The translations under genes were made by a program, and so were the position numbers. From contig DHGA01000061.1 of assembly GCA_002402545.1 (NCBI GenBank), forward strand, positions 1,239 through 65,238: 64,000 nucleotides of DNA. The letters run 5' to 3'. The DNA is from Syntrophaceae bacterium UBA4810 (GTDB lineage Bacteria; Desulfobacterota; Syntrophia; Syntrophales; Smithellaceae). A model generated the notes under the pieces. That model did no database searches. It was not told the DNA's origin and saw only the letters and a list, made by a program, of their open reading frames with translations. This document shows positions 11,714 through 29,712 of the stretch, piece by piece; the first letter of the stretch is position 1, and the number at the start of each line of letters is the position of its first letter.

Positions 11714-12517
11714 ATGATTGAACATATCAGAACTTTACAAGAAGCTCTTAATTCTCTGCAAATTGGCCTTCGTAAAATAAGATCAAAACAGATTCATCAT
11801 AAAAAGATCATTGCTGCTTCAAAAAAGATAGTTGATATTTATTTTAGAGAACTTCGTGAATTTCTTTTGAGTGCCTGCAACAACACGTCTGTTATTACAG
11901 ATCTGGATGCTAATATGCAAGACCTTCTTGAAGCAACACATAAGAAGACTAGTATCGGTATTTATAAGAGCAGGGTATCAAAAATAAAAAATCTACTATT
12001 GGAAACAGAAAAACTTATCCTTTTATCAGCAAGTAATTCTAATAACAGACATCAACTTACCCCTGCTGACAGAAGGGTAATAGAGACATTAAAGAAAATT
12101 CTCCCCTCGGCTGCGTTATCGTATGAGCAAGCATTAATAGATATGGAATCGTCGCACCGCTTATCCTGGAGGGGACCAGCGACAGATTTACGTGAGGCAT
12201 TAAGAGAGTGTTTAGATCATTTAGCCCCTGATAAGGAAGTTGAAGATGCCCCCGGATTTAAACGCGAACCAAATGCAAATGGCCCCACTATGAAACAAAA
12301 AACTACATATATACTGAGGAGTAGGCAATTATCTAAGGAATCAATTAAATCAGCACAAGATTCGGTTGCACTGATTGATGAAATGCTTGGATCATTTGTC
12401 CGATCAATTTATACACGCGCAAGTATATCAACACATACACCAACGGATAAAAAAGAAGTGGGGCGTATTTGTGATTTGGTAAGATTTGTTCTATGTGAAC
12501 TATTATCAATTTCATAA
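11714..12517 (+). CDS. hypothetical protein with C-terminal Rx5H (HEPN-like?) motif
   Basis: 267-aa ORF with RASISTH near the C-terminus. Family not recognised. Confidence 0.5.
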   Translation: MIEHIRTLQEALNSLQIGLRKIRSKQIHHKKIIAASKKIVDIYFRELREFLLSACNNTSVITDLDANMQDLLEATHKKTSIGIYKSRVSKIKNLLLETEKLILLSASNSNNRHQLTPADRRVIETLKKILPSAALSYEQALIDMESSHRLSWRGPATDLREALRECLDHLAPDKEVEDAPGFKREPNANGPTMKQKTTYILRSRQLSKESIKSAQDSVALIDEMLGSFVRSIYTRASISTHTPTDKKEVGRICDLVRFVLCELLSIS

Positions 12518-12520
12518 GAA

Positions 12521-12587
12521 TCCTAACCAGTCGCTAAAGCCGATCGCAGCGCCTGCGGCGCCGCTCCGGCTTAGCTTTTCGTTGGGC
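12521..12587 (+). repeat. attC-like recombination site 1
   Basis: TCCTAAC...CGCTAAAGCCGATCG...GCCGCTCCGGCTTAGCTTTTC-GTTGGGC. Imperfect palindrome with unpaired bases. It begins 4 nt after the upstream stop and ends 8-20 nt before the next start. Confidence 0.65.
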
Positions 12588-12606
12588 AACAAAATTGAAT
12601 ACAATC

Positions 12607-13686
12607 ATGAAGCGAGAAAACAGGCTTTTCATAGATGAATGTGGTTATACGGGAGAAGACCTCTTTAATGAGGATCAACCCGTTTTTGTCCTAGCCAGTT
12701 TCTGGTTAGCTGAAGAATATTGCGTCGATTTAAAACACAAATATTTCTCAAAAGTAAAAGCCAAAGAGCTGAAACATTCACGTTTATCAAGATATCCCGC
12801 CCAACAAAATATGGTTATTGATTTTCTTCGTGATATAGCAAAGGAATCAGACTCAGTCAAATTTGCCATTGCCCATAAACATTATGTTCTTATAACTAAA
12901 ATTGTTGACCTTCTTATCGAACCAATGGCGTATGAAGATGGTTTAGATTTCTATCAAGATGGTCTCAATATAGCTTTTTCAAATATGCTATACATCCAAA
13001 CCAAAAGACTCGCAGGAGATGATTTTTTTAAATGTATGCTCAAAAGTTTTCAGCAAATGATGAGAGAAAGGACATATCCCGCGTATGAAGCTTTTTTTAG
13101 GCCCATTTGCGAAAAAAAATTTCATAAAAAGCTTGATGAATTTTTTATTTTTCTTAAGGCACATCACGTACGATATGGCCCCAATTTTTTACGTACAATT
13201 CCGAAAGATGCGCTTGAAATTGCCTTTGCTGAAGCATTCAATTTGGTAGCTGAGTGGTCGAAATCTATTCAAGGCAATTTTTCACTTATACATGACAAAT
13301 CTTCAAATATGGCCAAAAATAAAAAGGCCTGGGATAAAGTGCTTCACCCTGCGGTTCCACCCAAAGTTGTAGGCTACGACAGGAGAAAAATGTATTTTCC
13401 CATTCGGACGGAAAAATCAGACTTCGAGAATTCATCTGATTTTGCAGGATTGCAACTTGTGGACATATTAGCAGGAGCAATGGCCAGATGTATGAAATGG
13501 AATATTCAGGGGGAAGAAGATCATGACGACTATGCGAAAGAATTGTCATCCTTTTTGCCAGAGTCATTTGGAGGACATATGCTTTGGCCTAGTACAAATG
13601 TAACTCCCAAAGATCTTGGGACAACTGGTCCAAAGGCTGAAGATGCAATACAGCATTTCATTGACTTGATCAAAGATGTTATCTAA
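12607..13686 (+). CDS. DUF3800 domain protein
   Basis: N-terminal FIDECGYTG (DE motif) and C-terminal LQLVDILAGA motif typical of DUF3800. The ATG at 12607 is preferred over the TTG at 12595. Confidence 0.65.
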   Translation: MKRENRLFIDECGYTGEDLFNEDQPVFVLASFWLAEEYCVDLKHKYFSKVKAKELKHSRLSRYPAQQNMVIDFLRDIAKESDSVKFAIAHKHYVLITKIVDLLIEPMAYEDGLDFYQDGLNIAFSNMLYIQTKRLAGDDFFKCMLKSFQQMMRERTYPAYEAFFRPICEKKFHKKLDEFFIFLKAHHVRYGPNFLRTIPKDALEIAFAEAFNLVAEWSKSIQGNFSLIHDKSSNMAKNKKAWDKVLHPAVPPKVVGYDRRKMYFPIRTEKSDFENSSDFAGLQLVDILAGAMARCMKWNIQGEEDHDDYAKELSSFLPESFGGHMLWPSTNVTPKDLGTTGPKAEDAIQHFIDLIKDVI

Positions 13687-13708
13687 CAATAATGAACTTA
13701 AGGGCAAT

Positions 13709-13772
13709 GCCCAACACCCGCTAAAGCCGATCGTGGCCACAAGGGCCGCTCCGGCTGAGCTTTTCGTTGGGC
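13709..13772 (+). repeat. attC-like recombination site 2
   Basis: GCCCAAC (RYYYAAC) ...CGCTAAAGCCGATCG...GCCGCTCCGGCTGAGCTTTTC-GTTGGGC (GTTRRRY). The ends are exact reverse complements. It shares an obviously related internal sequence with site 1. Confidence 0.7.
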
Positions 13773-13783
13773 AGGAGAAGGAC

Positions 13784-14386
13784 ATGAAGAAGCGATGCGA
13801 GTGGTGCGGCGGTGATCTCCTGTATATTGCCTACCACGATGAAGAGTGGGGTGTCCCTGTTCATGATGACCGCCTGTTGTTTGAGTTCCTTGTGCTGGAA
13901 GGAGCACAGGCGGGACTAAGCTGGCTGACCATCCTGAGGAAACGGGAGAACTATCGGAAGGCGTTTGACGCCTTCGAGTGTGAGCGTGTTGCCAAATACA
14001 CAGGGCATGACGTAACGCGCTTGCTCTCGGACTCCGGAATCGTACGGAATCGGCTCAAGATCGAATCGACCATCAAGAACGCTCGCACCGTTCTTGAAAT
14101 CCAGAATGAATGGGGCTCTCTGGATGCGTACTTATGGCGCTATGTTGATGGCATCCCAAAGCAGAACATGTGGAAATCTATGGCGGAGTTGCCCGCGAAG
14201 ACCGAAACGTCCGACATGATGAGCAAGGATTTGAAGAAGCGCGGATTCAACTTCGTGGGCTCAACAATCTGCTACGCATTCATGCAGGCGGTCGGCATGG
14301 TGAACGACCACACCACAGACTGCTTTCGCTACAGGGAGATCAAGAAGCTGAGATCGTCCAACCAGCCATCGGAAGCGACTCGCTAA
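13784..14386 (+). CDS. tag: DNA-3-methyladenine glycosylase I
   Basis: CEWC...YHDEEWGVPVHDD...LEGAQAGLSW signature. GGAG RBS, with the start 12 nt after the attC R' box. Confidence 0.9.
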   Translation: MKKRCEWCGGDLLYIAYHDEEWGVPVHDDRLLFEFLVLEGAQAGLSWLTILRKRENYRKAFDAFECERVAKYTGHDVTRLLSDSGIVRNRLKIESTIKNARTVLEIQNEWGSLDAYLWRYVDGIPKQNMWKSMAELPAKTETSDMMSKDLKKRGFNFVGSTICYAFMQAVGMVNDHTTDCFRYREIKKLRSSNQPSEATR

Positions 14387-14417
14387 AGCTCGCTCCTAAA
14401 TGGCTAACGTTAAGGGA
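14355..14417 (+). repeat. attC-like recombination site 3 (more divergent, overlaps tag 3' end)
   Basis: GTCCAAC...AGCCAT.GGAAGCGA-loop(CGCTAAAGC)-TCGCTCC...ATGGCT-AAC-GTTAAGG. Arms pair with bulges. The next ORF starts 11 nt downstream. Confidence 0.5.
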
Positions 14418-14428
14418 AAAAACATATT

Positions 14429-14782
14429 ATGCAGTACACCACTGTTCCTTTGTATGTCTCTACGCCGACAATGAAGAGCCTGGGCAATGAATATACTATC
14501 TTCGAGGACAAAATAGATTTGAGGTGCAGGTATTTGTTTTTCAATAAGATAATTACCGTGAAAAAGGAGGATATCGTTTCTATCGACGTATTCAGGCCAC
14601 CGGTAATCAGAACTTCGTTTAAAGCGCTAAAGCTTGATCTCGCGGATTTTTATGAGCATGTCGGCATAACCAGAAAGGGCGGCGTTTTCAGTCAATTGCG
14701 TTTTACCCCGGAAGACCCGCAGAAATTTGTTGCCGCGGCCAAAGAGGTTTTTGATATTGCTAATAAATCAAAGGAGATTTAA
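14429..14782 (+). CDS. hypothetical protein
   Basis: 117-aa ORF immediately after attC-like site 3. Confidence 0.5.
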   Translation: MQYTTVPLYVSTPTMKSLGNEYTIFEDKIDLRCRYLFFNKIITVKKEDIVSIDVFRPPVIRTSFKALKLDLADFYEHVGITRKGGVFSQLRFTPEDPQKFVAAAKEVFDIANKSKEI

Positions 14783-14784
14783 AC

Positions 14785-15120
14785 ATGCCCGAAAAGTTAT
14801 CAGAGATAAAAGATTTGACCAATGTATTGAAGCTAAAAGATATCGTCGCCTATCAGGAGCATTCCGTGGTGAGCCGGGAATTAATCCGCAAGCCAACCGG
14901 AACGCTGAGCGTTTTTGCCTTTGACCAGGGCGAAGGCTTAAGCGAACATACCGCGCCATTTGACGCAGTGGTCTGCATCCTGGAGGGCGAAGCGCAAATC
15001 AGCATTGATAAAAAGCCCCATACGATTAAAGAAGGCGAGATGCTGATTATGCCCGCCAACAAGCCACACGCGCTGCAGGCTGTCACCAAATTCAAAATGT
15101 TATTGGTGATGATTAAATAA
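14785..15120 (+). CDS. cupin domain protein
   Basis: GEMLIMPANKPHAL and H..P....V.EG cupin motifs. 111 aa. Confidence 0.7.
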   Translation: MPEKLSEIKDLTNVLKLKDIVAYQEHSVVSRELIRKPTGTLSVFAFDQGEGLSEHTAPFDAVVCILEGEAQISIDKKPHTIKEGEMLIMPANKPHALQAVTKFKMLLVMIK

Positions 15121-15209
15121 AGATTAGGATTATTATATAAATACACTTTTTTAACATTCCAAATGTTTGGCAGCAAAACAAATGACTTGATTTTCAAAAA
15201 GATTACTTC

Positions 15210-15238
15210 TTGACATTAGTAAACATATTGTTTATCAT
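15210..15238 (+). promoter_or_regulatory. sigma70-type promoter of higBA (TTGACA-17-TATCAT)
   Basis: The -10 box ends 6 nt before the higB ATG, which implies a leaderless or near-leaderless mRNA. Confidence 0.5.
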
Positions 15239-15244
15239 GCCTGC

Positions 15245-15526
15245 ATGATCAAGTCTTTTCGTTGCCGTGAAACCGAGAAGATATTTCGGCGTGAGTTTTC
15301 ACATAAGTTTCCTCGAGACATCCAGCAGCGCGCCTTCATAAAACTCAACGCCCTTGATGCGGCAATAAAAATTGAAGATTTGCGTTTGCCACCTTCTAAT
15401 CGGCTGGAGACATTAAAAGGAAAGCGACAGGGACAATGGAGCATCAGAATCAATGACCAATGGCGTCTTTGCTTCACATGGAAAGACGGCCATGCAGAAA
15501 ACGTTGAAATCGTTGATTATCATTAA
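15245..15526 (+). CDS. higB: HigB-type (RelE/ParE superfamily) toxin
   Basis: 93 aa. The pattern ...LKGKRQGQWSIRINDQWRLCF.W......VEIVDYH is typical of plasmid-maintenance killer HigB. Confidence 0.8.
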   Translation: MIKSFRCRETEKIFRREFSHKFPRDIQQRAFIKLNALDAAIKIEDLRLPPSNRLETLKGKRQGQWSIRINDQWRLCFTWKDGHAENVEIVDYH

Positions 15527-15537
15527 GGAGATTTAAA

Positions 15538-15840
15538 ATGGCAAAAAAACCAATAAAGCCAGTTCATCCGGGAGTTTATTTAAAAGAGTTGCTCAATGAG
15601 CTCGAGCTTTCACAGTATCGCCTCGCAAAAGAGTTGAATGTTCCGGCGATGCGTATTAATTATGTAATAAACGGCAAACGCCCCGTGAATGCATCTCTAG
15701 CTTTGAGATTGGGAAGGTATTTCAGCCAAGACCCGCGTTACTGGATCAATCTGCAGAGCCGCTACGATATGGATATAGCCGAAGACGCGCTGGAAAATAA
15801 AATCGTCCGCGAGGTTCATCCCCTGAGAATGGCAGGATAG
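15538..15840 (+). CDS. higA: HigA-type XRE-HTH antitoxin
   Basis: PVHPGVYLKELL...LSQYRLAKELNVPAMRINYVINGKR pattern. Toxin-first gene order. Confidence 0.8.
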   Translation: MAKKPIKPVHPGVYLKELLNELELSQYRLAKELNVPAMRINYVINGKRPVNASLALRLGRYFSQDPRYWINLQSRYDMDIAEDALENKIVREVHPLRMAG

Positions 15841-15916: not shown

Positions 15917-16540
15917 CTAAATCCACTTAAGAATTCCCGCAAAAACAATCAGCATCAGGGCATTGACGCCAAAGAACGTGCCAATAACTATCTTCTGCGT
16001 TTTGGGCTTCCAATCGTAGGAATACATGGAGACGACAAAGAAGGGAATGTACACGGTGATAAACACGGGGATCGAGCCCCACCACGGATATACCCAGACG
16101 AAAGCGGGCGTTTTGGCCAGAAATATCTCAAAGATGGAGAAAAAGGCCGCGGCGCCCAGCGCGATAAAGAGACGGTTGTTGATGCCCAGTATTTTCTTTT
16201 TCGGTTTGGGATCGAGCAGCTTGCTGTAGACTAACCCTGCGGCGGCAAACATGATGCTGAGTTCCGCGCACACGCCTACCAGCAGCAAAAAACCCGTGCC
16301 GGTGGGAACAGTCCAGAGCGCGTGTCCGCTGAAATGCTGAATTAAAGCGTTGATAATTTCATAAAACCAGTGAACCATATACAAAGACAGGCCCGCGGCG
16401 ATGCCTTTGTAATTCTTTCGCGCGTACTCATCGAAGTAAATGTAGAAGAGAAACATCAAAAGCGGAATGATATACCACTGGAAATTCTCGCCGTTTCTGA
16501 GGATCGCCAGCGCCTGTGTTGTTGCTTCGGGATTGTTCAT
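15917..16540 (-). CDS. hypothetical integral membrane protein
   Basis: 207 aa with about 6 TM segments. Confidence 0.55.
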   Translation of the reverse strand: MNNPEATTQALAILRNGENFQWYIIPLLMFLFYIYFDEYARKNYKGIAAGLSLYMVHWFYEIINALIQHFSGHALWTVPTGTGFLLLVGVCAELSIMFAAAGLVYSKLLDPKPKKKILGINNRLFIALGAAAFFSIFEIFLAKTPAFVWVYPWWGSIPVFITVYIPFFVVSMYSYDWKPKTQKIVIGTFFGVNALMLIVFAGILKWI

Positions 16541-16778
16541 AATTGTGCCCTCCCTTTTCTGGTTTATTTCCGCATAATGTACCGATCCGCAAAGGCGGCG
16601 TCAATCGGAATTTATATTCTGAAATTATTCCACTTTTTTATAAATTCTCCGGCTTCATTGTTTTGTGTTCTTTTTTTTTCTTAATGAAGGTATAATCCAA
16701 AAACCTGCCAAGCGGGTATATTAATCGTTGCACAGGCGCATAGCGACTCGCCTACGCCGCAAAGGGGATAGATTGCCA

Positions 16779-17483
16779 ATGAGAACGCTCATCAATCCTT
16801 TTGGAATCATTGCGCTGGGGTTGACTTCAATATTTATCGTCGTCCAGGGATGGTCACTTCCGGAATTCTGCTGGAGCATCTGGCTGGCCGGACTTGTTTA
16901 CGCATGGGGCTGTATCCTGACAGCGCTTCTGCATATAGTTCTGACTGCCCGGTCGCAAAAAGCTTTCTACGAGCAAAAATGGCCATTTCTTCAGCGTCTT
17001 TCTCCGATGCCTTTCCTTATGTGCGTAACCGTTGCCGCCATATGTGCGGGATTTTTAGGTTTTCGCATATATACTTTTTTATTCGGTTTTTATGGCTTGT
17101 TTCTCTCTGTTTTTGCGGAAATGGAGCCTTTTTCTCTTTTCGGAAGAAATGGATTTATTAACTCAGATTTTTTCACCCCTGTGGCATACCTCTTAAATCG
17201 CTTCTGGCCCATGGCAGCAGGTGTAGTTATTGCGAACTGGGACGATTTCTTGCGTCATAACCCGTGGAAGCGTATCGTGTTACCCTTTCAAAAAGAAATA
17301 GTACGTCTGCATATCATGATTCTTGCCTTGCCTTTTTTATCGCTTATCGCGTGGTTTATCTTCGGAGAGGCATACCAGCTAATAACCATTTTACTGCTCT
17401 TGGGACTTTTCTATCTTTTGCCCAAGAAGGCATTGATAAATCAATCGGCGAGGAAAAATGAAGTCGACAATCGCTCCCAATAG
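16779..17483 (+). CDS. hypothetical integral membrane protein
   Basis: Multi-TM ORF. ATG at 16779 with an AAGGGGA RBS. Confidence 0.55.
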   Translation: MRTLINPFGIIALGLTSIFIVVQGWSLPEFCWSIWLAGLVYAWGCILTALLHIVLTARSQKAFYEQKWPFLQRLSPMPFLMCVTVAAICAGFLGFRIYTFLFGFYGLFLSVFAEMEPFSLFGRNGFINSDFFTPVAYLLNRFWPMAAGVVIANWDDFLRHNPWKRIVLPFQKEIVRLHIMILALPFLSLIAWFIFGEAYQLITILLLLGLFYLLPKKALINQSARKNEVDNRSQ

Positions 17484-17484
17484 A

Positions 17485-17604
17485 GAAGCCCTTGATCCGC
17501 TCCCTGCGCACGGGTTTCGGGATAACAACTATGTCGGACTGGAGCACCCACCGCAAAGCTATCTGCGACGGTTTTTTGCCGTATGCCTTGCCTGGCGCGG
17601 CCAA
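17485..17604 (-). pseudogene. aldo/keto reductase C-terminal remnant
   Basis: AYGKKPSQIALRWVLQSDIVVIPKPVRRERI matches the conserved AKR C-terminal block (..GKTPAQVALRW.LQ.G..VIPKS....RI). The roughly 230-aa N-terminal part is absent. Confidence 0.6.
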
Positions 17605-17616
17605 GCGTTGAAAGTT

Positions 17617-17774
17617 AATCTTTCATTGACACACAAAGCCGTCTGTCTTAATATTACAACAGTGTAAAACACTTTTTTATTTCCGGCGCATAGGCAAAAC
17701 CCATCTATGGATAGTCCCACAGGCGAAATCAAAGGAGTGGAATACCGCGAGGAATTTGTTGCGGTTGATGATGC
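17617..17774 (+). repeat. left copy of a direct repeat (promoter box plus first 23 codons of the alpha/beta-hydrolase gene)
   Basis: 17617-17651 matches 21726-21760 (35 bp, 2 mismatches) and 17706-17774 matches 21806-21874 (69 bp, 2 mismatches). Contains TTGACA(17626)-17-TAATAT. Confidence 0.85.
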
Positions 17775-17880
17775 GGACGGAAAACCAGGCGGTACACAAG
17801 CAAAGCAAAAATCAATCGGCAATATCGCGAGGCACTGCATTGTTTGCATGAAAAGGAGGAATCTCAAGCATGGCAACTGA
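17707..17880 (+). pseudogene. 57-codon chimeric ORF: duplicated hydrolase N-terminus (MDSPTGEIKGVEYREEFVAVDDA) fused to unrelated sequence
   Basis: My own translation. Its TGA (17878-17880) overlaps the ATG region (17870) of the next gene. Confidence 0.5.
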
Positions 17881-18892
17881 TTTGATCCGTTCCCGCCGGC
17901 AGGCAAACTGGACACGCTACCTTCCCGGCCAGAAAAAAGGTCACTATGAAAGTTTTTTTCAGCGCGCCAACCACCCGACGCGCCCTCTGGCCTTCTGGAT
18001 CCGTTACACCATCTTCAGCCCTCATGAACGCCCCGCGGATGCCCTGGGCGAGCTCTGGGCTGTCTATTTCGACGGCGAGAATGGCCGCCATGTTACGGTC
18101 AAAAAAGAGGTGCCTTTTCAGCAGTGCTCTTTCAGCACGGAGGGATTTTCCGCCAAAATTGCCGATGCTTTTTTAGAAAACCGCAAACTAAAAGGCGAAG
18201 CGGCTTCCGGCGGCCGTCAGATTTCCTGGAATTTACAATTTGCAGGCCAGGAAAATCCTCTCTTCTTTCTGCCGCTTAACTTATACGAAACCGGTCTCCC
18301 CAAAGCCAAAAGCCTGGTGGGTTTGCCTCTGGCCGTTTACAACGGATTGCTCACCGTGGATGGCCGGGAAATCGCCATCACTGATTGGGTGGGCAGTCAA
18401 AATCATAACTGGGGAAGCAGGCACACAGACCAGTACGCCTGGGGACAGGTGGCGGGCTTTGACGCTGACCCCGATAGTTTTCTGGAAGTGGCTACCGCGC
18501 GTATTAAAATCGGCCCCTTCTGGACGCCGTATATGACGCCGCTGGTGCTTTGCCATCAGGGGGAGGAGTTTGCCCTCAACGGCCTGACACAGATATTTCG
18601 CGCCCGGGGAATGTTTGATTACTTTACCTGGAAATTCCGATCGGAAACGGACTCTGTTTGCGTGGAGGGCACAATCACCGCGCCCAAGGAAGCTTTCGTC
18701 GGGCTCAACTACTACAACCCGCCGGGCGGCAGCAAGCACTGCCTGAATACAAAGATCGCTTCCTGCCAGATCAAATTCACGCGCAAGCTGCAAGGCAGGA
18801 CCGATGATGTAGAAATTTTTTCCACAAAACACCGGGCTGCTTTTGAGATTTTAACCAACGACCGGGATCACGGTATCGAGATCAGCGCCTAG
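17870..18892 (+). CDS. hypothetical protein, possibly tocopherol-cyclase/CrtC-like fold
   Basis: AAGGAGG RBS. HYESFFQRANHP...LAFWIRYTIFSP loosely resembles the FFEGWYF...FAFMYSI block of tocopherol cyclases. Tentative. Confidence 0.35.
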   Translation: MATDLIRSRRQANWTRYLPGQKKGHYESFFQRANHPTRPLAFWIRYTIFSPHERPADALGELWAVYFDGENGRHVTVKKEVPFQQCSFSTEGFSAKIADAFLENRKLKGEAASGGRQISWNLQFAGQENPLFFLPLNLYETGLPKAKSLVGLPLAVYNGLLTVDGREIAITDWVGSQNHNWGSRHTDQYAWGQVAGFDADPDSFLEVATARIKIGPFWTPYMTPLVLCHQGEEFALNGLTQIFRARGMFDYFTWKFRSETDSVCVEGTITAPKEAFVGLNYYNPPGGSKHCLNTKIASCQIKFTRKLQGRTDDVEIFSTKHRAAFEILTNDRDHGIEISA

Positions 18893-18965
18893 GGGTCAAA
18901 GTCAATCACTTACCGTCTAATCAGTCGTTCATCTGGATAGTGCTTTAAGAGCTATGTTTTAATTA

Positions 18966-18993
18966 TTGACATATGGAATCCCCCTGCTACTAT
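18966..18993 (+). promoter_or_regulatory. possible internal promoter (TTGACA-16-TACTAT)
   Basis: Lies in the 130-bp gap before the MaoC-like gene. Confidence 0.35.
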
Positions 18994-19023
18994 GTCATGG
19001 TCAATGACGAAAAGGGGCACTCG

Positions 19024-19899
19024 ATGCATCTTGATTCTTCCTTCGTCGGCACAACTCTGCGCGAATATAAAACTACAGTCCACTGGCGGCATACGATGAA
19101 CTATGCCGCCGCGGTGAACGATCCCAATGAAGCGTATTTTAACGATGAAAGGCCGGAGGGAATTAGCGCCCACCCGATGAATTGCGCCGCTTTAACCTGG
19201 CCCATAACCGAACGGATACAGGATTTTATCGAATCAGAGGATTTCCCAAAGGAGCTGCTTGCAAGGCAGGTGCATTTCACCGAGCATCTGGAATTCCATC
19301 GGCAGGTCGTGCCGGGGGATGAATTGCTGATACAGGGACGCATCGCGGCAATTGAGCCCCACCGCGCCGGTACCCACGTAATAATACGTTTTGACGCGAC
19401 AGACAGAGAGGAGCAGCCCGTGTTTACCGAGCACATCGGCGGCCTCATGCGGGGAATCGAATGCAGGGGTGATGCCCGTGGAATGGATGATGTTCCCATG
19501 GTACCTAAATCTTCATCCGCCGACGTGCAATGGGAATCGGCCATCCCTATCGATAAAATGGCTTCTTTTATATATGACGGATGCACAAATATTTTTTTTC
19601 CAATACATACCTCCAGAAAATTCGCGCGTCAGGTCGGTCTGCCGGATATCATCCTGCAGGGAACCGCGACCCTTGCCTTTGCCGTGAGAGAACTCATCAA
19701 CAGGGAGGCCGGTGGAGATCCCGCGCGCGTTTCAAAGATATACTGCAAGTTTACCGGAATGGTTATGCCCGCATCTAATATCAGGGTACAGCAGACCGGC
19801 AAACTGAACACAGGCGCGGGTATAGATATTTTTTTTGTCGTACTGAACAGCGAAGGACAGAAAGCCTTAAATAACGGCTACATACAGATAACATCATAA
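19024..19899 (+). CDS. MaoC-like double hot-dog dehydratase
   Basis: The two hot-dog halves have the dehydratase-N / MaoC layout. ATG at 19024 follows AAAGGGG. Confidence 0.6.
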   Translation: MHLDSSFVGTTLREYKTTVHWRHTMNYAAAVNDPNEAYFNDERPEGISAHPMNCAALTWPITERIQDFIESEDFPKELLARQVHFTEHLEFHRQVVPGDELLIQGRIAAIEPHRAGTHVIIRFDATDREEQPVFTEHIGGLMRGIECRGDARGMDDVPMVPKSSSADVQWESAIPIDKMASFIYDGCTNIFFPIHTSRKFARQVGLPDIILQGTATLAFAVRELINREAGGDPARVSKIYCKFTGMVMPASNIRVQQTGKLNTGAGIDIFFVVLNSEGQKALNNGYIQITS

Positions 19900-19911
19900 A
19901 TGGAGGGTCAC

Positions 19912-21612
19912 ATGACAAACAGCATTGAAGAACTGAACCTGCCCCTGGTAAATTCCTATGTTGAATACTGGGCAAAAAAAACTCCCGACGCTATCGCGAT
20001 GATTCAGCATGAGGATGACAGAGCCTTTTCGTATAAAAAGTTTGCATCCCTGATCGACTTCTTCGCGTTGAGGCTCCTGGACATGGGCATTAAAAAGGGC
20101 GACACCATAGCCACGCTGCTCGTGCTTCTTCCCGAGCATATCATGCTGATGTACGCGTGTTTCAAAATCGGCGCCATCATCGCACCCCTTGACGTGCGCC
20201 TTCAGGATGATGAAGTCGTGCGGGATATCGATAAGATTAAGGCGAAGGCCTTTTTCTTTCTCGGTAATACGCCGGTAAGGGACTTTCGCACGGCAGGAAA
20301 AGCAGTTAAAGAAAAGTGCCCCTACGTCGAGCATCTCATTCAATTCACACCTGATCCGCAACCGGGCGACCTCATCGCAGGCGCTACCGGCATCACGGGA
20401 ATGATGGATAAAAAACGGCTGATCTGGCTGAAAATTAAAGATGTCATATCGGGCAATCTGAAAAAAGTTTACGCGAATATCGATAAGAGAACCCCCGCGC
20501 TTATTATCTATACCACAGGGACTACGGGCGAACCTAAGCCCGCGCTCCTCTGCCATGAAAATATCATCGTGCAGAACAGAATTCTTTCACGGGGGATAAA
20601 CGTTGATAGTATTAAAATACTGGTGAACCTGCCGCCGAGCCACGTGGGGTGCGTCACTGAAACTTTTATGACCACAATATTTCTGGGTGGCACCGCGGTT
20701 CTGCTCAGAATATTTGATGTCGCCATGAGCCTTGAGGCGATACAGAAGCACAAGATCAATGCGATAGGTCAGATCCCCACTCAGTTCAGGATGATGTGGG
20801 CGCATCCTGATTACAAAAAATTCGATCTCAGCAGTCTGAAGGCCGCGGCCTACGCGGGATCCGCAGTTGATGTTGAATTTCTAAAAAAATTATCCACAAT
20901 GGCCCCGAATATCGGTACGGGCATCGGCATGACTGAAAACGCGGGCTTCGCTACATTCACTCCCGCCGGTATAAGCGTCGAGGAGATGGCCGGTCAGGTG
21001 GGGCGCGCTTTCCCGGACCTCGCACAGGTGTCGATCAGAAAACCGATGAACGCCAACGGGACAGCCGGCAATGAATTGGCAGACGGCGAGATCGGCGAGA
21101 TATGTTATCATCCCCCGATAGTCTTTCTCGGTTACTACGGCCAGCCGGAGGCCACTGCAAAGGCGATATCTAAAGAGGGAATTCTTTATACCGGTGATAT
21201 AGGATGCTTCAAGGACCTGGGCACATACCGGGCTCTGTATCTCGCGGGAAGAGAAAAATTCATGATCAAGCAGAAGGGCTTCAAGGTATTTCCTGGTGAG
21301 GTCGAAGACCATATTTCGAAACTGGATAAGGTCGATGTAGTCGAGGTAATCGGTATGCCGCATTCAATATTCGATGACGGTATTTTCGCCTTCGTAAAAC
21401 CGAAACCGGGAGAAGAGCTCACCGCTCAGGCTGTGATGGAACACTGCAAAGAGATCGCGTCATACAAACGTCCGCAGCACGTAGAAATATGGCCGGCTGA
21501 TAAACTTTTCCCATTGACCAGAAGCACCAAGGTTGACAAACTCGCCCTGAAGAAACTCGCGGCACCGATAATAGAATCGCTCAGAAAAGGGGGCGGATGG
21601 GACGCGTCATAA
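19912..21612 (+). CDS. AMP-dependent acyl-CoA synthetase/ligase
   Basis: IIYTTGTTGEPKPA AMP-binding motif, YTGDIG, and C-terminal K. GGAGGG RBS before the ATG at 19912. Confidence 0.85.
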   Translation: MTNSIEELNLPLVNSYVEYWAKKTPDAIAMIQHEDDRAFSYKKFASLIDFFALRLLDMGIKKGDTIATLLVLLPEHIMLMYACFKIGAIIAPLDVRLQDDEVVRDIDKIKAKAFFFLGNTPVRDFRTAGKAVKEKCPYVEHLIQFTPDPQPGDLIAGATGITGMMDKKRLIWLKIKDVISGNLKKVYANIDKRTPALIIYTTGTTGEPKPALLCHENIIVQNRILSRGINVDSIKILVNLPPSHVGCVTETFMTTIFLGGTAVLLRIFDVAMSLEAIQKHKINAIGQIPTQFRMMWAHPDYKKFDLSSLKAAAYAGSAVDVEFLKKLSTMAPNIGTGIGMTENAGFATFTPAGISVEEMAGQVGRAFPDLAQVSIRKPMNANGTAGNELADGEIGEICYHPPIVFLGYYGQPEATAKAISKEGILYTGDIGCFKDLGTYRALYLAGREKFMIKQKGFKVFPGEVEDHISKLDKVDVVEVIGMPHSIFDDGIFAFVKPKPGEELTAQAVMEHCKEIASYKRPQHVEIWPADKLFPLTRSTKVDKLALKKLAAPIIESLRKGGGWDAS

Positions 21613-21725
21613 AAGACCATCGCCGTAAAACAAAGGATTGAAGAGGGCAATTCGGAGGATATAAAACTTAATTATCTTCAGGGACATCAGGGCTGTTGTC
21701 CCTGATTAGTCCACAGACAGGACTC

Positions 21726-21874
21726 AATCTTTTATTGACACACAAAGCCGACTGTCTTAAATTCGCCTATTAGAAAGCCATGTCGTATCAGAAGTTAGAG
21801 GCAGTTATGGATAGTCCCTCAGGCGAAATCAAAGGAGTGGAATACCGCGAGGAATTTGTTGCGGTTGATGACGC
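21726..21874 (+). repeat. right copy of the direct repeat (native promoter and 5' end of the hydrolase gene)
   Basis: See the left copy. Contains TTGACA(21735)-17-TAAATT. Confidence 0.85.
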
Positions 21875-22670
21875 CGTGCGGCTCAAGGTAATGGTTTTTA
21901 AACAGACTGCCGCGCAGGGCAAAGCGCCTGTTCTTTTTGTATCGGGCTGGGTTTCCGCATTTTCCGGCTGGGCTTCTTTTATCCGGGCGCTGGCCGGCGA
22001 GCGCGATGTTTATTATCTGGAGACAAGAGAAAAGTCCTCGGCGCTAATTGACGAAAAAGCTCCTTTAACCGATGACGACTTCAGTATATTTCAAATCGCA
22101 AAAGACATCATTAAGGTCTGTGAACACTTCAAGATAAACAATCCGCAAACGCTGGCCTGCGGCAGTTCGCTGGGCGCGACATCGCTTTTGGAAGCGCTCA
22201 AAAATGGCAAGCTCAAAGTCGGTGGCGCGTTTCTGGTAGGGCCCAATAGTGAATTCACCGCGTCACGCTTTCTTTTGTGGATTTTATATTTGCACGTCAG
22301 CTTCTACAAGCCCTTCACCTACTTTTTGGTTTGGTATTTGCGCCACTTTCGCGTGGATGCCAAAACGGAGCCCGAGCAGTTAAAGCGCTATAAAGCAATG
22401 CTCAATGATGTTGAACCAAAGCGGCTGAAACACTCCGCGCGATCGGTCATTTTGGGAAAATACCGGGTGTGGAACGATTTGGAAACAATAAAAATCCCTG
22501 TTGCTGTTGCCTACGCGCCTACCGACAAACTGCATAATCTGAATAACCTTTTATTAATCGCCCGGCGTCTTCCTTTCGGAAAGTTGAACCCCTGCCCGAC
22601 AAATCTCTATATGCACTCAGAGCAACTGCTTGATGATATCAACGCCTTTGAGCGGGAAATCCGGTATTGA
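21780..22670 (+). CDS. alpha/beta hydrolase
   Basis: 296 aa with a GSSLGA nucleophile-elbow-like motif. An alternative start at 21807 coincides with the repeat boundary. Confidence 0.65.
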   Translation: MSYQKLEAVMDSPSGEIKGVEYREEFVAVDDAVRLKVMVFKQTAAQGKAPVLFVSGWVSAFSGWASFIRALAGERDVYYLETREKSSALIDEKAPLTDDDFSIFQIAKDIIKVCEHFKINNPQTLACGSSLGATSLLEALKNGKLKVGGAFLVGPNSEFTASRFLLWILYLHVSFYKPFTYFLVWYLRHFRVDAKTEPEQLKRYKAMLNDVEPKRLKHSARSVILGKYRVWNDLETIKIPVAVAYAPTDKLHNLNNLLLIARRLPFGKLNPCPTNLYMHSEQLLDDINAFEREIRY

Positions 22671-22719
22671 ACCCGCACGCATCCTCTCTTCTGCGCGATA
22701 GGCGTCTGCAAAAAACAGC

Positions 22720-23943
22720 TTATGTAATTTCTTCGATACCAAGCGGATACTTAGACATAACTTCACAGCCGTCTTTAACAATAACAATATCATTTTCGTA
22801 GCGAAAACCGATATTCTCTTCCGGCGCGGCATACTGCATAGCGCAGACAACCACTTCATTTTCCTGATAGACATGGTCCTGGTCTGTCCAATAGGGCAGA
22901 TCAGGATTGACCACCGCGCCAATGCGCCACTCGTCGCCGAAAAGGCCGATGCCGTGCTCGCACGCTGGCTGAATAAAGTCGCCGCAGCCGCGCGACTCGG
23001 CGTAGTCCATCATAATCGCGGCAAGCGTTCCGGGAGTGGTGCCGGCCCGGTAATTATCAAGCACTTTCTGAATAATCGCGACAAAATTATCCGCGTGCCA
23101 TCGCTGACGCTTTGTTGCCGGCCCGATCAGATAATTGTGCGAATGATCTCCCAGCGCGAGTTTAAACATCGCGTGAAAATCCAGCATCAGCGGCTCGCCC
23201 GCTTTTATTTCTTTCGTGGTCGGAGGAGTACACGCCCCCAGTCCCGTGCGGTAGCCGCTGGAAATCTCGTTCAGTCCCGCAAAATTCCACTCCGACACGC
23301 TTCCCGCTTTGCGCATCGCCAGCGCGGCAATCCCGGCAATGACTGTTTCCGTCATTCCTTTGTAGCCGCCGTTTTCCAGCGCCGCACGCGCCGCTTTATG
23401 GCCTTCATCAACAATAAGCGATGCGGTGCGAAAACGCTCAATTGTTCCTTTGTCTTTTATTAAAGAAAGGGCGTCAATAATGTCATGGGCGTTTACCCAT
23501 TCAAAACCGGGCAGAGCGTCTTTAAAATGAGTGTATTCCCAATGCGTTAGATTTCCCTCGGCTGTATATGCGGAAATGCCATCTTCATAGCCGAGGCGCC
23601 CTTTATTGATTCCTATCTCATCTTTTATATAATCAGTGATGGCGGAGACCTGATCCATGCCGCCCATTGGTCCGTAGGCGCGAACATGATCACCGTCCAG
23701 CCAGGTCTCGTCTCCTATCCGCAACGCGTCCACGACAAAAGTAAAATAGGTCGGCTGTCCTTCGGGCGGAATAATGATATAACTTCTCCACGGGCAAAAC
23801 GTATCCATGACAAAGCTCATGGTGCGAATGCGCGAACCTAGATACACGTCAATGCCGCGCTTGTGCATTTCGGCCTGTATCGCCTTAACACGTCCGGGAT
23901 TATCGATGTAATATTTGTCTTTCGGATCAAGTTTTCTGGGCAT
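22720..23943 (-). CDS. M24 family metallopeptidase (creatinase/Xaa-Pro peptidase-like)
   Basis: Creatinase-N-like N-terminal domain plus a pita-bread C-terminal domain (DFH...GD.SH...CEHGIG). Confidence 0.7.
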   Translation of the reverse strand: MPRKLDPKDKYYIDNPGRVKAIQAEMHKRGIDVYLGSRIRTMSFVMDTFCPWRSYIIIPPEGQPTYFTFVVDALRIGDETWLDGDHVRAYGPMGGMDQVSAITDYIKDEIGINKGRLGYEDGISAYTAEGNLTHWEYTHFKDALPGFEWVNAHDIIDALSLIKDKGTIERFRTASLIVDEGHKAARAALENGGYKGMTETVIAGIAALAMRKAGSVSEWNFAGLNEISSGYRTGLGACTPPTTKEIKAGEPLMLDFHAMFKLALGDHSHNYLIGPATKRQRWHADNFVAIIQKVLDNYRAGTTPGTLAAIMMDYAESRGCGDFIQPACEHGIGLFGDEWRIGAVVNPDLPYWTDQDHVYQENEVVVCAMQYAAPEENIGFRYENDIVIVKDGCEVMSKYPLGIEEIT

Positions 23944-23955
23944 ATTTAGTCTCCC

Positions 23956-24357
23956 TTAATAATTGGTTGGTATTTTTGCTAAAACTTTATTCAGGCGGTC
24001 GGAAACCGCCGCGAGTTTGAGCGCTTTGGCCAGGTTGCCTTTGAGCTTGAGCTTCCCCGTCATCAGCGCTTTCTGCGCGCCCAGCTCCGCGCGGGAAATT
24101 TTGGCAAATGTTTCGTAATTGCCGGTGATGAGAAATTCCGCCTTGGGCGGCTCGCCCGTGCCTGTTTCCACGCGGGTTACTTTCCCTTCTTTGCATTCGA
24201 CAAATAAAAACATTTCCGCGCCGCTGGGACAGTTTTTATAAATGTTGGACATAGACGTGGTTACATTGTTCATTTTTTCCGGTGTGAGTTCTGACTGAAG
24301 CCTATTGAGCGCTTCATCACGCCATGCCGGGCTCAGGTACGCGTGTTGTTCGGACAT
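23956..24357 (-). CDS. SCP2 sterol-carrier domain protein
   Basis: ...ALMTGKLKLKGNLAKALKL C-terminal SCP2 signature. Confidence 0.7.
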   Translation of the reverse strand: MSEQHAYLSPAWRDEALNRLQSELTPEKMNNVTTSMSNIYKNCPSGAEMFLFVECKEGKVTRVETGTGEPPKAEFLITGNYETFAKISRAELGAQKALMTGKLKLKGNLAKALKLAAVSDRLNKVLAKIPTNY

Positions 24358-24546
24358 GTTATTTTCCTCCTGGCTGATAAGTTATCATATTTTTATGCCG
24401 CAAGCATAGGTTAATGCTTCGCGATATGTCAATGAATTTATATCCTTATTGCTGAATACCTGATTTAGCAGCTAATATTCAGATTTATTTACGATAAGCA
24501 GCGCAATGAGGAGATATTGAACTAAAATATTGGTGGCAATCTTTCA

Positions 24547-24575
24547 TTGACTCTCAAAACCGTGTGTCTTAAAAT
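24547..24575 (+). promoter_or_regulatory. promoter (TTGACT-17-TAAAAT), third copy of the conserved 37-bp promoter box
   Basis: TCTTTCATTGACTCTCAAAACCGTGTGTCTTAAAATC compared with 17619 TCTTTCATTGACACACAAAGCCGTCTGTCTTAATATT. Confidence 0.5.
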
Positions 24576-24626
24576 CAGCTTGTTGAAAAAGGTCCATGGA
24601 AAAATGAACGGAAAGCGTAAAAACCC

Positions 24627-25886
24627 ATGAAATATGTCGGGCAGGATTCTAAAGAAAAAATTGTACAGCGCTTCGCCCAATATGTCAGCCCGGGCAAGGC
24701 GGAAACATTCAAGGCCTACGATATGCAGTTTGTCTTTGGCCGGCGTGAAGGGCCTTATGTCTGGGACGCGGTAAGCGGCAAGCGCCTGATCAACTGTCAT
24801 TGCAACGGAGGCGTCTTCAACTTAGGGCACCGCAACCCCATAATTATTCAGGCACTCAAAGATTCTCTGGATGAACTGGACATCGGCAATCATCACCTGA
24901 TCAGCGAGCAGCGCGCTTTGCTGGCCGAGAAACTGGCGGGGCTGATGCCGGGCGACATCGACTGCACGGTATTCGGCGTGGGCGGCGGCGAGGCGATTGA
25001 TCTGGCTATTAAACTGGCGCGCGGCTACACTGGTAAATTCAACATTATCTCCGCGCAGGGCGGCTATCACGGGCATACAGGATTTGCCCTCGCCACGGGC
25101 GATGAACAATACCGCGCTCCCTTCGGCCCCAACCTGCCCGGTTTTATTCAGGTTCCCTTCAACGACATTGATGCCCTCAGCAAAGCCTTGAACAAAGAAA
25201 CCGCTGCGGTTATCTTTGAAACCATACCAGCCACGCTGGGCATGCCTCTGCCTGATCCTGATTATTATAAGAAAGTAAATGAACTCTGCGCTCGCCACAG
25301 CACCCTTCTGATTATCGACGAAGTACAGACGGGACTGGGGCGCACCGGCAAACTTTGGGGCATAGAAAACTACGACACAGTGCCGGACATCATCGTCATC
25401 GGCAAGGGGCTCTCCGGCGGCATCTATCCGATGAGCGCCACCTGTTTCCGTCGCAAATACATGGACTTTTTTCGTCAAAATCCCTTTATCCACATATCCA
25501 CCTACGGCGGCGCGGAAGTAGGATGCCCGGTGGCGGCCGCGGTGCTGGAAGAATCATCAAGGCCGGAATTTTTACAAAATGTCACCGATCTGGCTTCGGT
25601 ATTTGCGGAAGCTTTTGCCGCATTAAAGAAAAAACATTCACGCATTCTGGTTGGGTTGAGGCAGCTGGGGCTGATGATGGGCATAGAGATGGTCAACGAA
25701 GATTGCGGTCCGCTTATGACCAAGGCCTGCTACGACCAGGGCATACTCGCCATTTACGCCAACAACAATAAACGCGTCTGCCAGCTTCTGCCGCCACTCA
25801 TTATCGACAGCAATGTTGCCGGAGAAATTATTTCCGGCATTGACACAGCGCTCAAAGAAACCGCGGATTTTCTGGGCCTTAAATAA
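24627..25886 (+). CDS. class-III (acetylornithine/GABA-type) aminotransferase
   Basis: DEVQTGLGRTGKLWG and IVIGKGLSGG (PLP Lys) motifs. Confidence 0.85.
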   Translation: MKYVGQDSKEKIVQRFAQYVSPGKAETFKAYDMQFVFGRREGPYVWDAVSGKRLINCHCNGGVFNLGHRNPIIIQALKDSLDELDIGNHHLISEQRALLAEKLAGLMPGDIDCTVFGVGGGEAIDLAIKLARGYTGKFNIISAQGGYHGHTGFALATGDEQYRAPFGPNLPGFIQVPFNDIDALSKALNKETAAVIFETIPATLGMPLPDPDYYKKVNELCARHSTLLIIDEVQTGLGRTGKLWGIENYDTVPDIIVIGKGLSGGIYPMSATCFRRKYMDFFRQNPFIHISTYGGAEVGCPVAAAVLEESSRPEFLQNVTDLASVFAEAFAALKKKHSRILVGLRQLGLMMGIEMVNEDCGPLMTKACYDQGILAIYANNNKRVCQLLPPLIIDSNVAGEIISGIDTALKETADFLGLK

Positions 25887-29648: not shown

Positions 29649-29712
29649 AGGTTGGTGACAGCCTGATATTTTTTTAACGGCCTTATTATTAATTCCCCAT
29701 CTAAGGATTTTG

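Follow-up and report, generated by a model that had tools for sequence, protein, structure and literature searches.

In the 64,000-nt stretch of DNA analysed here (the window), three lipid/acyl-CoA genes are interposed between a conserved predicted promoter and the alpha/beta hydrolase gene that this promoter would normally drive. We conclude that this module is probably a strain-variable composite gene set, which was wired into an existing promoter family and moved by homologous recombination.

The DNA comes from an uncultured syntrophic bacterium of the Smithellaceae (Syntrophales), and the arrangement belongs to one strain. Its features are collected in Table 1. The direct repeats that a first-pass annotation had placed around the module were recovered, with the same coordinates and mismatch counts, by a repeat search and a two-sequence alignment: block 1, 17617-17651 against 21726-21760 (35 nt, 94%, 2 mismatches), and block 2, 17706-17774 against 21806-21874 (69 nt, 97%, 2 mismatches). 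The spacers separating the blocks, 54 nt on the left and 45 nt on the right, were unlike in the alignment. A 26-nt pattern of the promoter box gave 2 matches and a 41-nt core of the coding block gave 2 exact matches, each against 0.00 expected by chance. Right block 2 translates as MDSPSGEIKGVEYREEFVAVDDA, in agreement with the proposed hydrolase N-terminus, and the 294 hydrolase homologues, mostly of 287 aa, favour the start at 21807 over that at 21780. The hydrolase itself gave weak Pfam matches to Hydrolase_4/Abhydrolase_1.

Table 1. Features of the module and its surroundings (positions in the window)
Feature	Position	Strand	Remarks
Membrane-protein gene (251/234 aa)	16728-17483	+	Left flank; shared with empty-site relatives
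Promoter box P1, predicted (left block 1)	17617-17651	+	Repeat search, promoter scan
Left-type leader	17652-17706	+	55 nt from box to ATG
Hydrolase-gene stub, codons 1-23 (left block 2)	17707-17774	+	Chimeric
57-codon chimeric ORF	17707-17880	+	23 hydrolase codons + 34 junction codons
Left junction segment	17775-17869	+	Carries the g340 Shine-Dalgarno sequence
g340, conserved 340-aa protein	17870-18892	+	Weakly AttH/CrtC/tocopherol-cyclase-like beta-barrel fold
MaoC-like double hot-dog (R)-hydratase/dehydratase (MaoC/FAS1-DH)	18973-19899	+	Pfam
AMP-forming acyl-CoA ligase	19900-21612	+	PF00501 (AMP-binding), 4e-59
Two hairpins past the ligase stop	21678-21724	+	Second followed by a T-rich tract; terminator-like
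Promoter box P2, predicted (right block 1)	21726-21760	+	Repeat search, promoter scan
Right-type (canonical) leader	21761-21806	+	46 nt, ending AGAGGCAGTT before ATG
Alpha/beta hydrolase gene, intact, 287 aa	21807-22670	+	Nt 1-68 are right block 2
M24 peptidase-like gene (22720-23943) and SCP2 gene (23956-24357)	22720-24357	-	Convergent with hydrolase
Promoter box P3, predicted, third family member	24538-24575	+	In front of aminotransferase operon
Class-III aminotransferase	24627-25886	+	PF00202, 3.9e-82; first gene of a conserved operon (DUF6206, MOFRL, others)

The three genes annotated between the repeat copies are all present, although the tocopherol-cyclase assignment of the first was sub-threshold. 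This protein, g340, gave no Pfam match at E <= 0.01, its Tocopherol_cycl match (PF14249) having E = 0.013; the best Foldseek match of its structural model (pLDDT 73) was AttH, 2ich, with probability 1.0 and a TM score of 0.43-0.46. Its 3933 homologues are mostly solitary genes. The second gene matched PF01575 at 1.5e-13 and PF13452 at 1.4e-9. Ligase homologues at 82-87% identity measure 564-566 aa, and the true start is probably 19912, giving 566 aa. The MaoC-like and ligase genes were found together in locus L136, and the pair also occurs without g340. The module is thus a composite of a usually solitary AttH/CrtC-like gene and a conserved MaoC-ligase pair, and the three genes do not constitute a pre-existing mobile unit. 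In the called-gene tables, the 21 kb surrounding the module contained no member of a transposase or integrase family, and we found neither flanking inverted repeats nor a plasmid or phage relative.

Among close relatives, the module is present in some strains and absent from others. In the empty sites (L021, L050 and L013-L016), box, leader and hydrolase come immediately after the membrane-protein gene, with hydrolase amino acid identities of 93% (L021, L050) and 81% (L013-L016). Their collinearity with the window runs to 17769-17776 and resumes at 21726. By tblastn, the membrane-protein gene, which has no Pfam match, is 94-96% identical in L013 and L021, where box and hydrolase come directly after it. 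The empty allele that the first-pass annotation had envisaged therefore exists, and the duplicated arrangement is not common to all relatives. In a second filled allele, L022, identity is 98-100% from the ligase end through hairpins and box to the right leader, but only 80% in the hydrolase; there are two hydrolase allele classes, each found in filled and empty contexts. In sister lineages g340 occupies the slot of the hydrolase, lying in L053 and L054 between AF_1327 and the M24 or aminotransferase gene. The M24 and SCP2 genes form a second strain-variable block, which is absent in L013. Taken together, these alignments show that the locus is a mosaic. Neither a donor of 17775-21806 nor the left side of the L022 allele turned up among the loci compared.

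At the left end, the repeat copy is the predicted promoter, leader and truncated hydrolase 5' end that were resident at the site. This copy lines up with the empty sites, and 17575-17738 is 100% identical to L021, including the P1 box (predicted at consensus level, -35 TTGACA at 17626-17631, 17 nt, -10 TAATAT at 17649-17654). The left leader is 100% identical to L021 and 96% to L013, compared to 31% identity with the right leader. Accordingly, the earlier proposal that the module had captured a copy of the hydrolase promoter and a translated leader holds insofar as a hydrolase-type promoter stands in front of the module, together with a 23-codon leader derived from the hydrolase; the promoter copy itself was not captured, being the resident one.

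Within the stub, the first 32 nt are identical to L021 and nt 33-68 follow the right-copy type. Mismatches between the window and L021 numbered 0/164 over 17575-17738, compared to 7/36 over 17739-17774 (Fisher p = 3.7e-6), which places a recombination breakpoint inside the 23-codon stub on the basis of 7 informative sites. Because the breakpoint lies in this block, the repeats do engage in homologous recombination, as had been suspected. Intragenomic gene conversion between the two stubs would explain the SNP pattern equally well.

A recombining stub would also be expected if the filled state were ancestral in the clade and the empty sites had arisen by deletion through recombination between the 69-bp stubs, leaving the left box, the left leader and an intact hydrolase. 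Each empty site indeed has exactly one copy with a left-type leader, the expected product of a crossover in the 69-bp block, and the filled allele is combined with either of two hydrolase allele classes. However, in outgroup L017 a left-like leader stands immediately before the hydrolase, and both module and membrane gene are absent. Furthermore, the left stub is a gene fragment, so that an intact hydrolase at the left position must have preceded the filled state. In addition, no same-strain empty allele was seen, the structure being invariant in all contigs of the strain. We consider loss from an ancestral filled state rather unlikely and, from parsimony with one outgroup (L017), infer gain of the module.

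The right end gives a different picture from the left. P2 (-35 TTGACA at 21735-21740, -10 TAAATT at 21758-21763, again predicted at consensus level) has the canonical 'GACTGTC' variant, as in L017, L022 and the roughly 70% group, and at both block-1 mismatches it is the right copy that has the canonical state. The right leader is 98% identical to that of L022. Compared to distant relatives, its identity was 43-67% in 13 of 14 loci and 7% for L039, whereas the left leader reached 11-33%. The distant leaders share its AGAGRC-N3-4-ATG ending and the upstream hairpin, with 46-47-nt spacing in most. The 30 nt upstream of the right box are 63-80% identical to distant hydrolase loci, and the hairpin region folds at -37.8 kcal/mol (RNA, z = -3.6) with a terminator-scan match at 21708-21724; the second hairpin is part of the canonical hydrolase promoter unit. 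Rather than a fresh duplicate, the right leader is thus a diverged homologue similar to the leaders of distant hydrolase lineages. The hydrolase gene is also a mosaic: by sliding identity, its core is 95-100% identical to L021/L050 and its 3' end about 95% identical to L022/L013, and its 5' ~190 nt belong to an unsampled allele.

These observations bear on the model of the first-pass annotation, in which a single in-situ duplication of 160 bp, promoter plus 5' coding sequence, bracketed the inserting module, and the right spacer diverged after insertion. The model accounts for block identities of 94% and 97% and for a 160-bp segment of the empty site (L021 2202-2361) that aligns at either end of the insert. 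Nevertheless, a spacer of 31% identity between two such blocks, its resemblance to the leaders of distant lineages, homology that extends ~30 nt to the left of the repeat boundary and the canonical state of both block-1 mismatches in the right copy all argue against it. The identity of the boxes says nothing of a recent duplication, since the box is equally conserved in unrelated contexts. We regard this duplication as improbable; in a variant of it, an original clean duplication of the right type may have had its left leader replaced later by recombination up to the stub.

Somewhat less probable still is that the stub ORF is a functional leader, its 57-codon translation coupling to or regulating g340 and selection keeping the 23 codons. 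The ORF at 17707-17880 is as first described, with its TGA 8 nt past the g340 ATG (17870), within ATGGCAACTGA, giving a stop/start overlap of 11 nt, so that translational coupling would be geometrically possible. It is intact in all contigs and is called as a gene in JGI, ENA and NCBI annotations. Since the hydrolase of the empty-site strains uses this very leader and start codon, translation of the ORF is probable. Against a function, g340 has its own strong Shine-Dalgarno sequence, AAAGGAGG (17853-17860), at the optimal spacing of 9 nt upstream of the ATG; the junction showed no excess RNA structure (z = +0.68) and no Rfam match; and the ORF has no homologue and no Pfam match, with no sequence variation among contigs. 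Among the loci compared from other species, none resembled the left junction segment.

A chimeric or collapsed contig, for which nothing speaks except that repeats exist, has virtually no probability and is refuted by 12 contigs of the same species (L001-L012; nine metagenome samples or sequencing runs from ENA, JGI and Logan, different assemblers), which carry parts of the arrangement and show no repeat difference wherever a repeat is covered, and by Logan unitigs whose breaks, at 17742 and 21849, fall where k = 31 would put them given the two repeat SNPs (17719, 17772), which indicates that both repeat copies are present at read level.

The promoter box is not confined to the module and the hydrolase. 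P3 is 87% identical over 38 nt by blastn, with TTGACT-17-TAAAAT in the promoter scan, and a relaxed box motif gave 3 perfect matches against 0.05 expected; the promoter scan of the region overall found 13 sites against 10.2 expected. The box precedes the aminotransferase in the window, L013, L050 and L054, and it is also found ahead of hydrolases with only 68-71% identity. The gene order of the aminotransferase operon is conserved in L013, L053 and L054. The box is deeply conserved and common to at least three transcription units, and we predict that it is a sigma-70-type promoter.

In the favoured reading, gain by recombination, the module would sit in a recombination-prone 'first-gene slot' upstream of the conserved aminotransferase operon. 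Its insertion would have split the resident promoter and leader from the hydrolase gene body, so that P1 would now transcribe the 57-codon stub ORF and the three module genes, the ligase being followed by the terminator-like hairpins. The intact hydrolase would be served by its own promoter and leader, P2, a diverged family member of canonical type that arrived with the incoming DNA and was not copied from P1, and P3 would drive the aminotransferase operon. All three units are probably under the control of this one sigma-70-type promoter, which an operator may overlap. Recent sharing between the two ends of the module would be limited to the 69-bp coding stub. The founding joint at 17774/17775 was presumably illegitimate, with an unsampled donor. 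Thereafter the stub and box at the left end and the hydrolase at the right end would offer homology through which ordinary recombination carries the filled allele into empty-site strains, or removes it.

Related arrangements have been described. As with the 'putative mobile promoters' of promoter reuse or capture (Nijveen, Matus-Garcia & van Passel 2012; PMC3575422), highly similar promoter sequences of one genome here precede non-homologous genes (module, hydrolase, aminotransferase), and new genes would be rewired into an existing control circuit with no recognisable mobile element. However, at 35-38 nt the shared part falls short of the study's requirement of >= 50 nt at >= 80%; the copies are of old date and have diverged instead of spreading recently; and one copy reaches coding sequence, a case that the study excluded as paralogues (PMC3575422). 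[quoted passage not shown] There, too, foreign genes lie beside a conserved gene end, a truncated resident remnant is left behind and the composite spreads among strains by ordinary homologous recombination with no integrase. The genes here are metabolic instead of toxin-immunity pairs, and the remnant is a 5' stub with promoter instead of a 3' orphan; unlike in that model, the displaced hydrolase stays intact because the incoming DNA would have brought a second promoter and 5' end. Direct repeats also flank genes inserted by transposons/IS and integron cassettes, but the repeat here is 160 bp and imperfect, whereas target-site duplications are 2-14 bp, and the module has no terminal inverted repeats, transposase, integrase or attC-like site.

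As in Campbell-type (single-crossover) integration and excision, the insert is bracketed by direct repeats of the target, with one copy in empty alleles, although the repeats are discontinuous (35 + 69 bp on either side of an unrelated spacer) and no circular form or replicon of the module was found. We conclude that the module is an ordinary, if well documented, example of genes gained or lost at strain level through recombination, in which the likeness to Campbell-type integration predicts that loss of the module would be reversible.

A repeat search recovered both pairs of direct repeats that the first-pass annotation had placed around a three-gene module (see the table), and the rest of the structure it described, including the 57-codon ORF that overlaps the ATG of the next gene and the MDSP(T/S)GEIKGVEYREEFVAVDDA translation of the second block, proved to be real and accurate; the empty sites for which it proposed to look exist as well. 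In pairwise alignment the stretches that separate the two blocks, 54 nt in the left copy and 45 nt in the right, are not related to each other, and the chance expectation is zero for the box and for the coding-block core. Because most hydrolase homologues are 287 aa long, we place the hydrolase start at 21807, as had been assumed. The 296-aa call from 21780 in some public gene calls probably begins 9 codons too early; a start there would leave ~10 nt past the predicted -10, with no Shine-Dalgarno sequence. The 570-aa ligase call from 19900, also in some public gene calls, probably starts too early as well, the closest homologues being 564-566 aa.

Features of the locus and its surroundings (window coordinates)
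Feature	Position	Remark
Relaxed box motif (TTGATAAATTGCTTTTTTTGTCTTAA)	669-694	one mismatch; weak candidate
pP_pnuc_1	11714-12517	extra vs L013
DUF3800	12595-13686	extra vs L013
Adenine glycosylase	13676-14386	extra vs L013
117-aa ORF	within 11714-15840	extra vs L013
HigB/HTH_3 toxin-antitoxin pair	15245-15840	extra vs L013
P1 box (left copy)	17617-17651	35 nt, 2 mismatches to P2 box
Coding block (left copy)	17706-17774	69 nt, 2 mismatches to right copy
Stub ORF	17707-17880	57 codons; TGA at 17878-17880
g340	17870-18892	340 aa; module gene
MaoC/FAS1-DH double hot-dog protein		module gene
AMP-forming acyl-CoA ligase		module gene
Hairpins	21678-21724	
P2 box (right copy)	21726-21760	35 nt
Coding block (right copy)	21806-21874	69 nt
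Alpha/beta hydrolase	21807-22670	after module
M24-peptidase-like gene and SCP2 gene	22720-24357 (-)	convergent, after hydrolase
P3 box (AATCTTTCATTGACTCTCAAAACCGTGTGTCTTAAAAT)	24538-24575	38 nt
Class-III aminotransferase, with DUF6206 and MOFRL genes		downstream
NTP_transf_5	29710-30906	downstream of operon
PqqD	30939-31211	downstream of operon
HPr-kinase-C/ScmC-like gene	31222-32214	downstream of operon
28-aa ORF	32296-32382	minus strand

An assembly artefact was ruled out by concordant contigs and SNP-matched unitig ends. The ENA contig L001 is 100% identical to the window, and the arrangement recurs, in parts, on 12 contigs of the same species (nine samples or sequencing runs, different assemblers), with zero repeat differences wherever covered. 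Two SNPs, 17719 A/T and 17772 T/C, distinguish the copies, and two Logan unitigs end at 17742 and 21849, which are the forced branch points of a k = 31 graph given both SNPs. Contig names such as MLSBCLC suggest that the source samples are oil-sands tailings metagenomes.

A sigma-70-type promoter consists of -35 and -10 hexamers close to TTGACA and TATAAT, 16-18 nt apart. The boxes of the two copies (P1 before the module, P2 before the hydrolase) belong to a family with the consensus ATTGACACaCAaAaCCgnctgTCTTAAaaT (lower case, less conserved), and a third box, P3 (87% identity by blastn), precedes the start of the class-III aminotransferase by 52 nt. All three fit predicted promoters of this type with 17-nt spacing, reading TTGACA-17-TAATAT (P1), TTGACA-17-TAAATT (P2) and TTGACT-17-TAAAAT (P3), with 10/12 consensus positions each, and they match the relaxed motif TTGAC-N13-TGTCTTAA perfectly (0.05 matches expected). 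Since the region is not enriched in sigma-70-type sites overall (13 vs 10.2 expected), the weight of the promoter call rests on conservation across lineages. The box is present upstream of the hydrolase in ~20 relatives, and a box-like promoter also precedes the aminotransferase in the relatives L013 (10860-10886, overlapping the hydrolase stop), L050 and L054. With a box family that is conserved among relatives and has three members here, the 35-bp repeat is thus explained by function and does not point to a recent duplication. An operator may overlap the promoter, to judge from the conservation of the 17 nt that separate the hexamers. A search of the window gave no further box copies beyond the weak candidate at its left end, which may represent a fourth regulon member or match by chance.

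With these assignments, transcripts from P1 would cover the stub ORF and the three module genes and would mostly end at the two hairpins behind the ligase (z = -3.6), while P2 would serve the hydrolase and P3 would serve the aminotransferase operon. The insert would thus have joined one co-regulated set. Translational coupling of the stub ORF to g340, the 340-aa gene that opens the module, had been raised as a possibility. The end of the stub ORF (TGA at 17878-17880) does overlap the start of g340 (ATG at 17870), in a different frame, as in translationally coupled pairs, and coupling is geometrically possible, but it would be unnecessary because g340 has its own Shine-Dalgarno sequence (AAAGGAGG, 9 nt upstream of the ATG), which argues that g340 is translated independently of upstream translation. 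A known RNA element or riboswitch in the leaders was rejected: there was no Rfam match over 16500-25000 at E <= 1, and no excess RNA structure in the left leader plus stub (z = +0.68).

The comparison with relatives, for which the first-pass annotation had called, yielded alleles without the module in L021 and L050 (hydrolase 93% identical, aa) and in L013-L016 (81%), in which box, leader and hydrolase come immediately after the membrane-protein gene. By blastn, L021 is collinear with the window to 17776 (L021 585-2361 to window 16000-17776) and resumes from 21726 (L021 2202-3961 to window 21726-23476); a 160-bp stretch of the empty site, L021 2202-2361, matches both ends of the insert. Between the window and L021 we thus find collinearity with an uninterrupted allele, a sharp joint and homology resuming beyond it, as in a product of homology-facilitated illegitimate recombination. 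A second filled allele, L022, is represented by a contig that begins inside the ligase and covers the right side alone; it shows 98-100% identity to the window over the end of the ligase, the hairpins, the box and the right-type leader, and only 80% in the hydrolase. Module loss through recombination between the two stubs is a live rival to gain. However, the outgroup L017 carries an uninterrupted hydrolase with a left-like leader, and for this reason gain is favoured on parsimony.

The box, the 55-nt leader and the first 32 coding nucleotides of the left copy are identical to L021, and the left copy is resident sequence. The right leader shares just 31% identity with its left counterpart and resembles the hydrolase leaders of lineages in which the hydrolase is only 68-76% identical. 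Most of these distant leaders have the 46-47-nt spacing of the right leader, and they have in common with it the AGAGRC-N3-4-ATG ending and, upstream of the box, a hairpin and then CAATnTTTTATTGACA. Spacer identity to 13 of the 14 distant leaders compared is 43-67% for the right copy (L039, 7%) and 11-33% for the left; over the 30 nt upstream of the box, the values against distant lineages are 63-80% and 3-60%, respectively. In addition, both mismatches in the 35-bp block carry the canonical state in the right copy. From the distant-lineage-like leader and upstream region and these canonical states, the right promoter and leader are a diverged homologue, not a fresh copy of the left, and most simply they arrived with incoming DNA. 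One clean duplication that 'captured' the promoter, as first proposed, is only partly right: the repeats stand, and the fresh copying of promoter and leader does not. In the distant lineages the genes preceding the hydrolase are unrelated, and therefore the hydrolase makes up a self-contained unit together with its hairpin, box and leader.

Recent sharing between the two copies is confined to the 69-bp coding stub, in which they differ at 2/69 positions, vs 5-15 between either copy and any orthologue. The 23-codon N-terminus is ordinary conserved coding sequence, and constraint at the nucleotide level was ruled out by the many synonymous changes with which distant relatives keep the peptide. 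When the left copy is compared with L021, no mismatch occurs in the 164 nt of 17575-17738, but 7 occur in the 36 nt of 17739-17774 (Fisher p = 3.7e-6), and over the latter segment the left copy differs from the right copy at 1 position. Because of this split at 17738/17739 and the near-match to the right copy, the left stub is a chimera. Two explanations account for it equally well: double homologous recombination, its left crossover falling within the stub, may have brought an already filled allele into an L021-like background, or the right copy may have converted the left copy within the genome.

Transposon or IS insertion is marked by a transposase gene, inverted repeats at the termini and a target-site duplication that is short and exact, whereas here the repeat extends over 160 bp and is patchy, 17775-21725 lacks flanking inverted repeats, and no transposase or integrase family is present in the gene tables (~10 kb each side). 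An integron cassette carries an attC site at its end and has an integrase with attI nearby; here those gene tables hold no integrase, the three genes have their own intergenic regions, and the hairpins are part of the conserved hydrolase promoter unit. A plasmid or phage origin was rejected, since 17775-21725 had no blastn match in PLSDB or INPHARED. Because inverted repeats, transposase or integrase families and a plasmid or phage relative are all lacking, the founding joint at 17774/17775 is illegitimate. The insert has no base-composition anomaly (GC 0.49-0.54 vs 0.45-0.50 in the flanks), and the junction segments 17775-17869 and 21613-21725 gave no donor match outside this species and L022. 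Behind the observed anatomy, polymorphism, box conservation, mosaicism and breakpoint, we envisage an insertion by one homologous anchor and one illegitimate joint, which would then have spread by homologous recombination. The overall pattern here fits this course, which earlier work put forward for variable loci elsewhere (PMC3240628, PMC5361080). One promoter before unrelated genes matches 'promoter reuse' (PMC3575422), although the shared stretch is shorter than that required of a putative mobile promoter (a minimum of 50 nt with 80% identity or more in front of non-paralogous genes; PMC3575422), with P1 and P2 sharing 35 nt (94%) and P1 and P3 38 nt (87%).

The module itself is composite. 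A conserved mobile trio was rejected, because 78/80 genome loci and 3 further metagenome contexts have g340 without the MaoC gene or a close ligase. The g340 family (3933 homologues; 54-74% identity to loci from several phyla in a genome scan) is large and well conserved and is usually a solitary gene, and its nearest member outside this species is 76% identical. Close ligase relatives (85-87%) lie directly after another gene (L136, MaoC-family; L137, an unidentified partial ORF), both loci being without g340 and hydrolase; beyond this species and L022, ligase identity reaches 87% at the closest. The earlier tocopherol-cyclase/CrtC label for g340 is tentative at best. There was no Pfam match at E <= 0.01 (PF14249, E = 0.013, 15 bits vs a cut-off of 26.6), g340 homologues also score under this cut-off (18.6-23.4 bits), and the structural model (pLDDT 73) matches 2ich (AttH) with a Foldseek E of 1e-7 and a probability of 1.0, with a TM of only 0.43-0.46. 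Neither g340 nor the hydrolase had a useful match among PDB sequences.

The whole locus is a recombination mosaic with a variable slot. By sliding identity, the hydrolase core (~21975-22514) is 95-100% identical to L021/L050 and ~75% to L022/L013. For the 3' end (22545-22664) the figures are ~95% with L022/L013 and 76-78% with L021/L050, and the first ~190 nt have no matching allele among those sampled. Both allele classes are found with the module (window, L022) and without it (L021/L050, L013). The two classes are only ~75% identical (nucleotide) between flanks of 93-100%, the window copy being a three-part mosaic; such allelic divergence in one gene is unusually high. A second block that varies between presence and absence is the M24-SCP2 pair. 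It is missing from L013-L016, whose aminotransferase lies 75 bp after the hydrolase, and is present at 98-99% aa identity in L022, L050, L054 and L021 (in L021 M24 only, the contig ending inside).

The remaining 2/80 g340 genome loci are the Syntrophaceae MAGs L053 (UBA5764) and L054 (UBA7520), in which a g340 homologue (71-72% aa, at 8001-9020) lies between AF_1327(-) and M24 or the aminotransferase operon, the hydrolase's place in other relatives, behind a different upstream region without the box. We suggest that g340 and the hydrolase may be alternative or related first genes of one pathway. A further idea, which we regard as improbable, is that the box plus the short 5' coding stub could be a recombinase-free 'docking site' in Syntrophales for exchanging alternative first-step enzymes at the head of the conserved aminotransferase operon (hydrolase class A or B, the AttH-like gene, the MaoC-ligase pair), with incoming units bringing or re-using the same promoter and leaving the regulon intact. 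If true, the docking site would be a promoter-anchored cassette slot that uses homologous recombination, not an integrase. Upstream of the locus, the window has extra genes relative to L013 at 11714-15840. Downstream of the operon, 29710-32382 looks like a RiPP (lasso-peptide-like) maturation set, at which L013 has an additional Mur_ligase_M gene. The neighbourhood as a whole is a strain-variable region.

We conclude that the event is of an ordinary kind, strain-level gene gain or loss with promoter re-use in a highly recombining population, and it reveals no new kind of element or mechanism. For annotation, it shows that a 57-aa ORF listed publicly as a 'hypothetical protein' is a gene stub. 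With the insert re-using the promoter already in place and the displaced gene served by a second one from the same family, the locus provides an example, at single-nucleotide resolution, of accessory metabolic genes entering an existing regulon in uncultured syntrophs. As a lead to function, shared position and promoter link three unknowns: the AttH-like 340-aa family, the hydrolase family and the aminotransferase/DUF6206/MOFRL operon.
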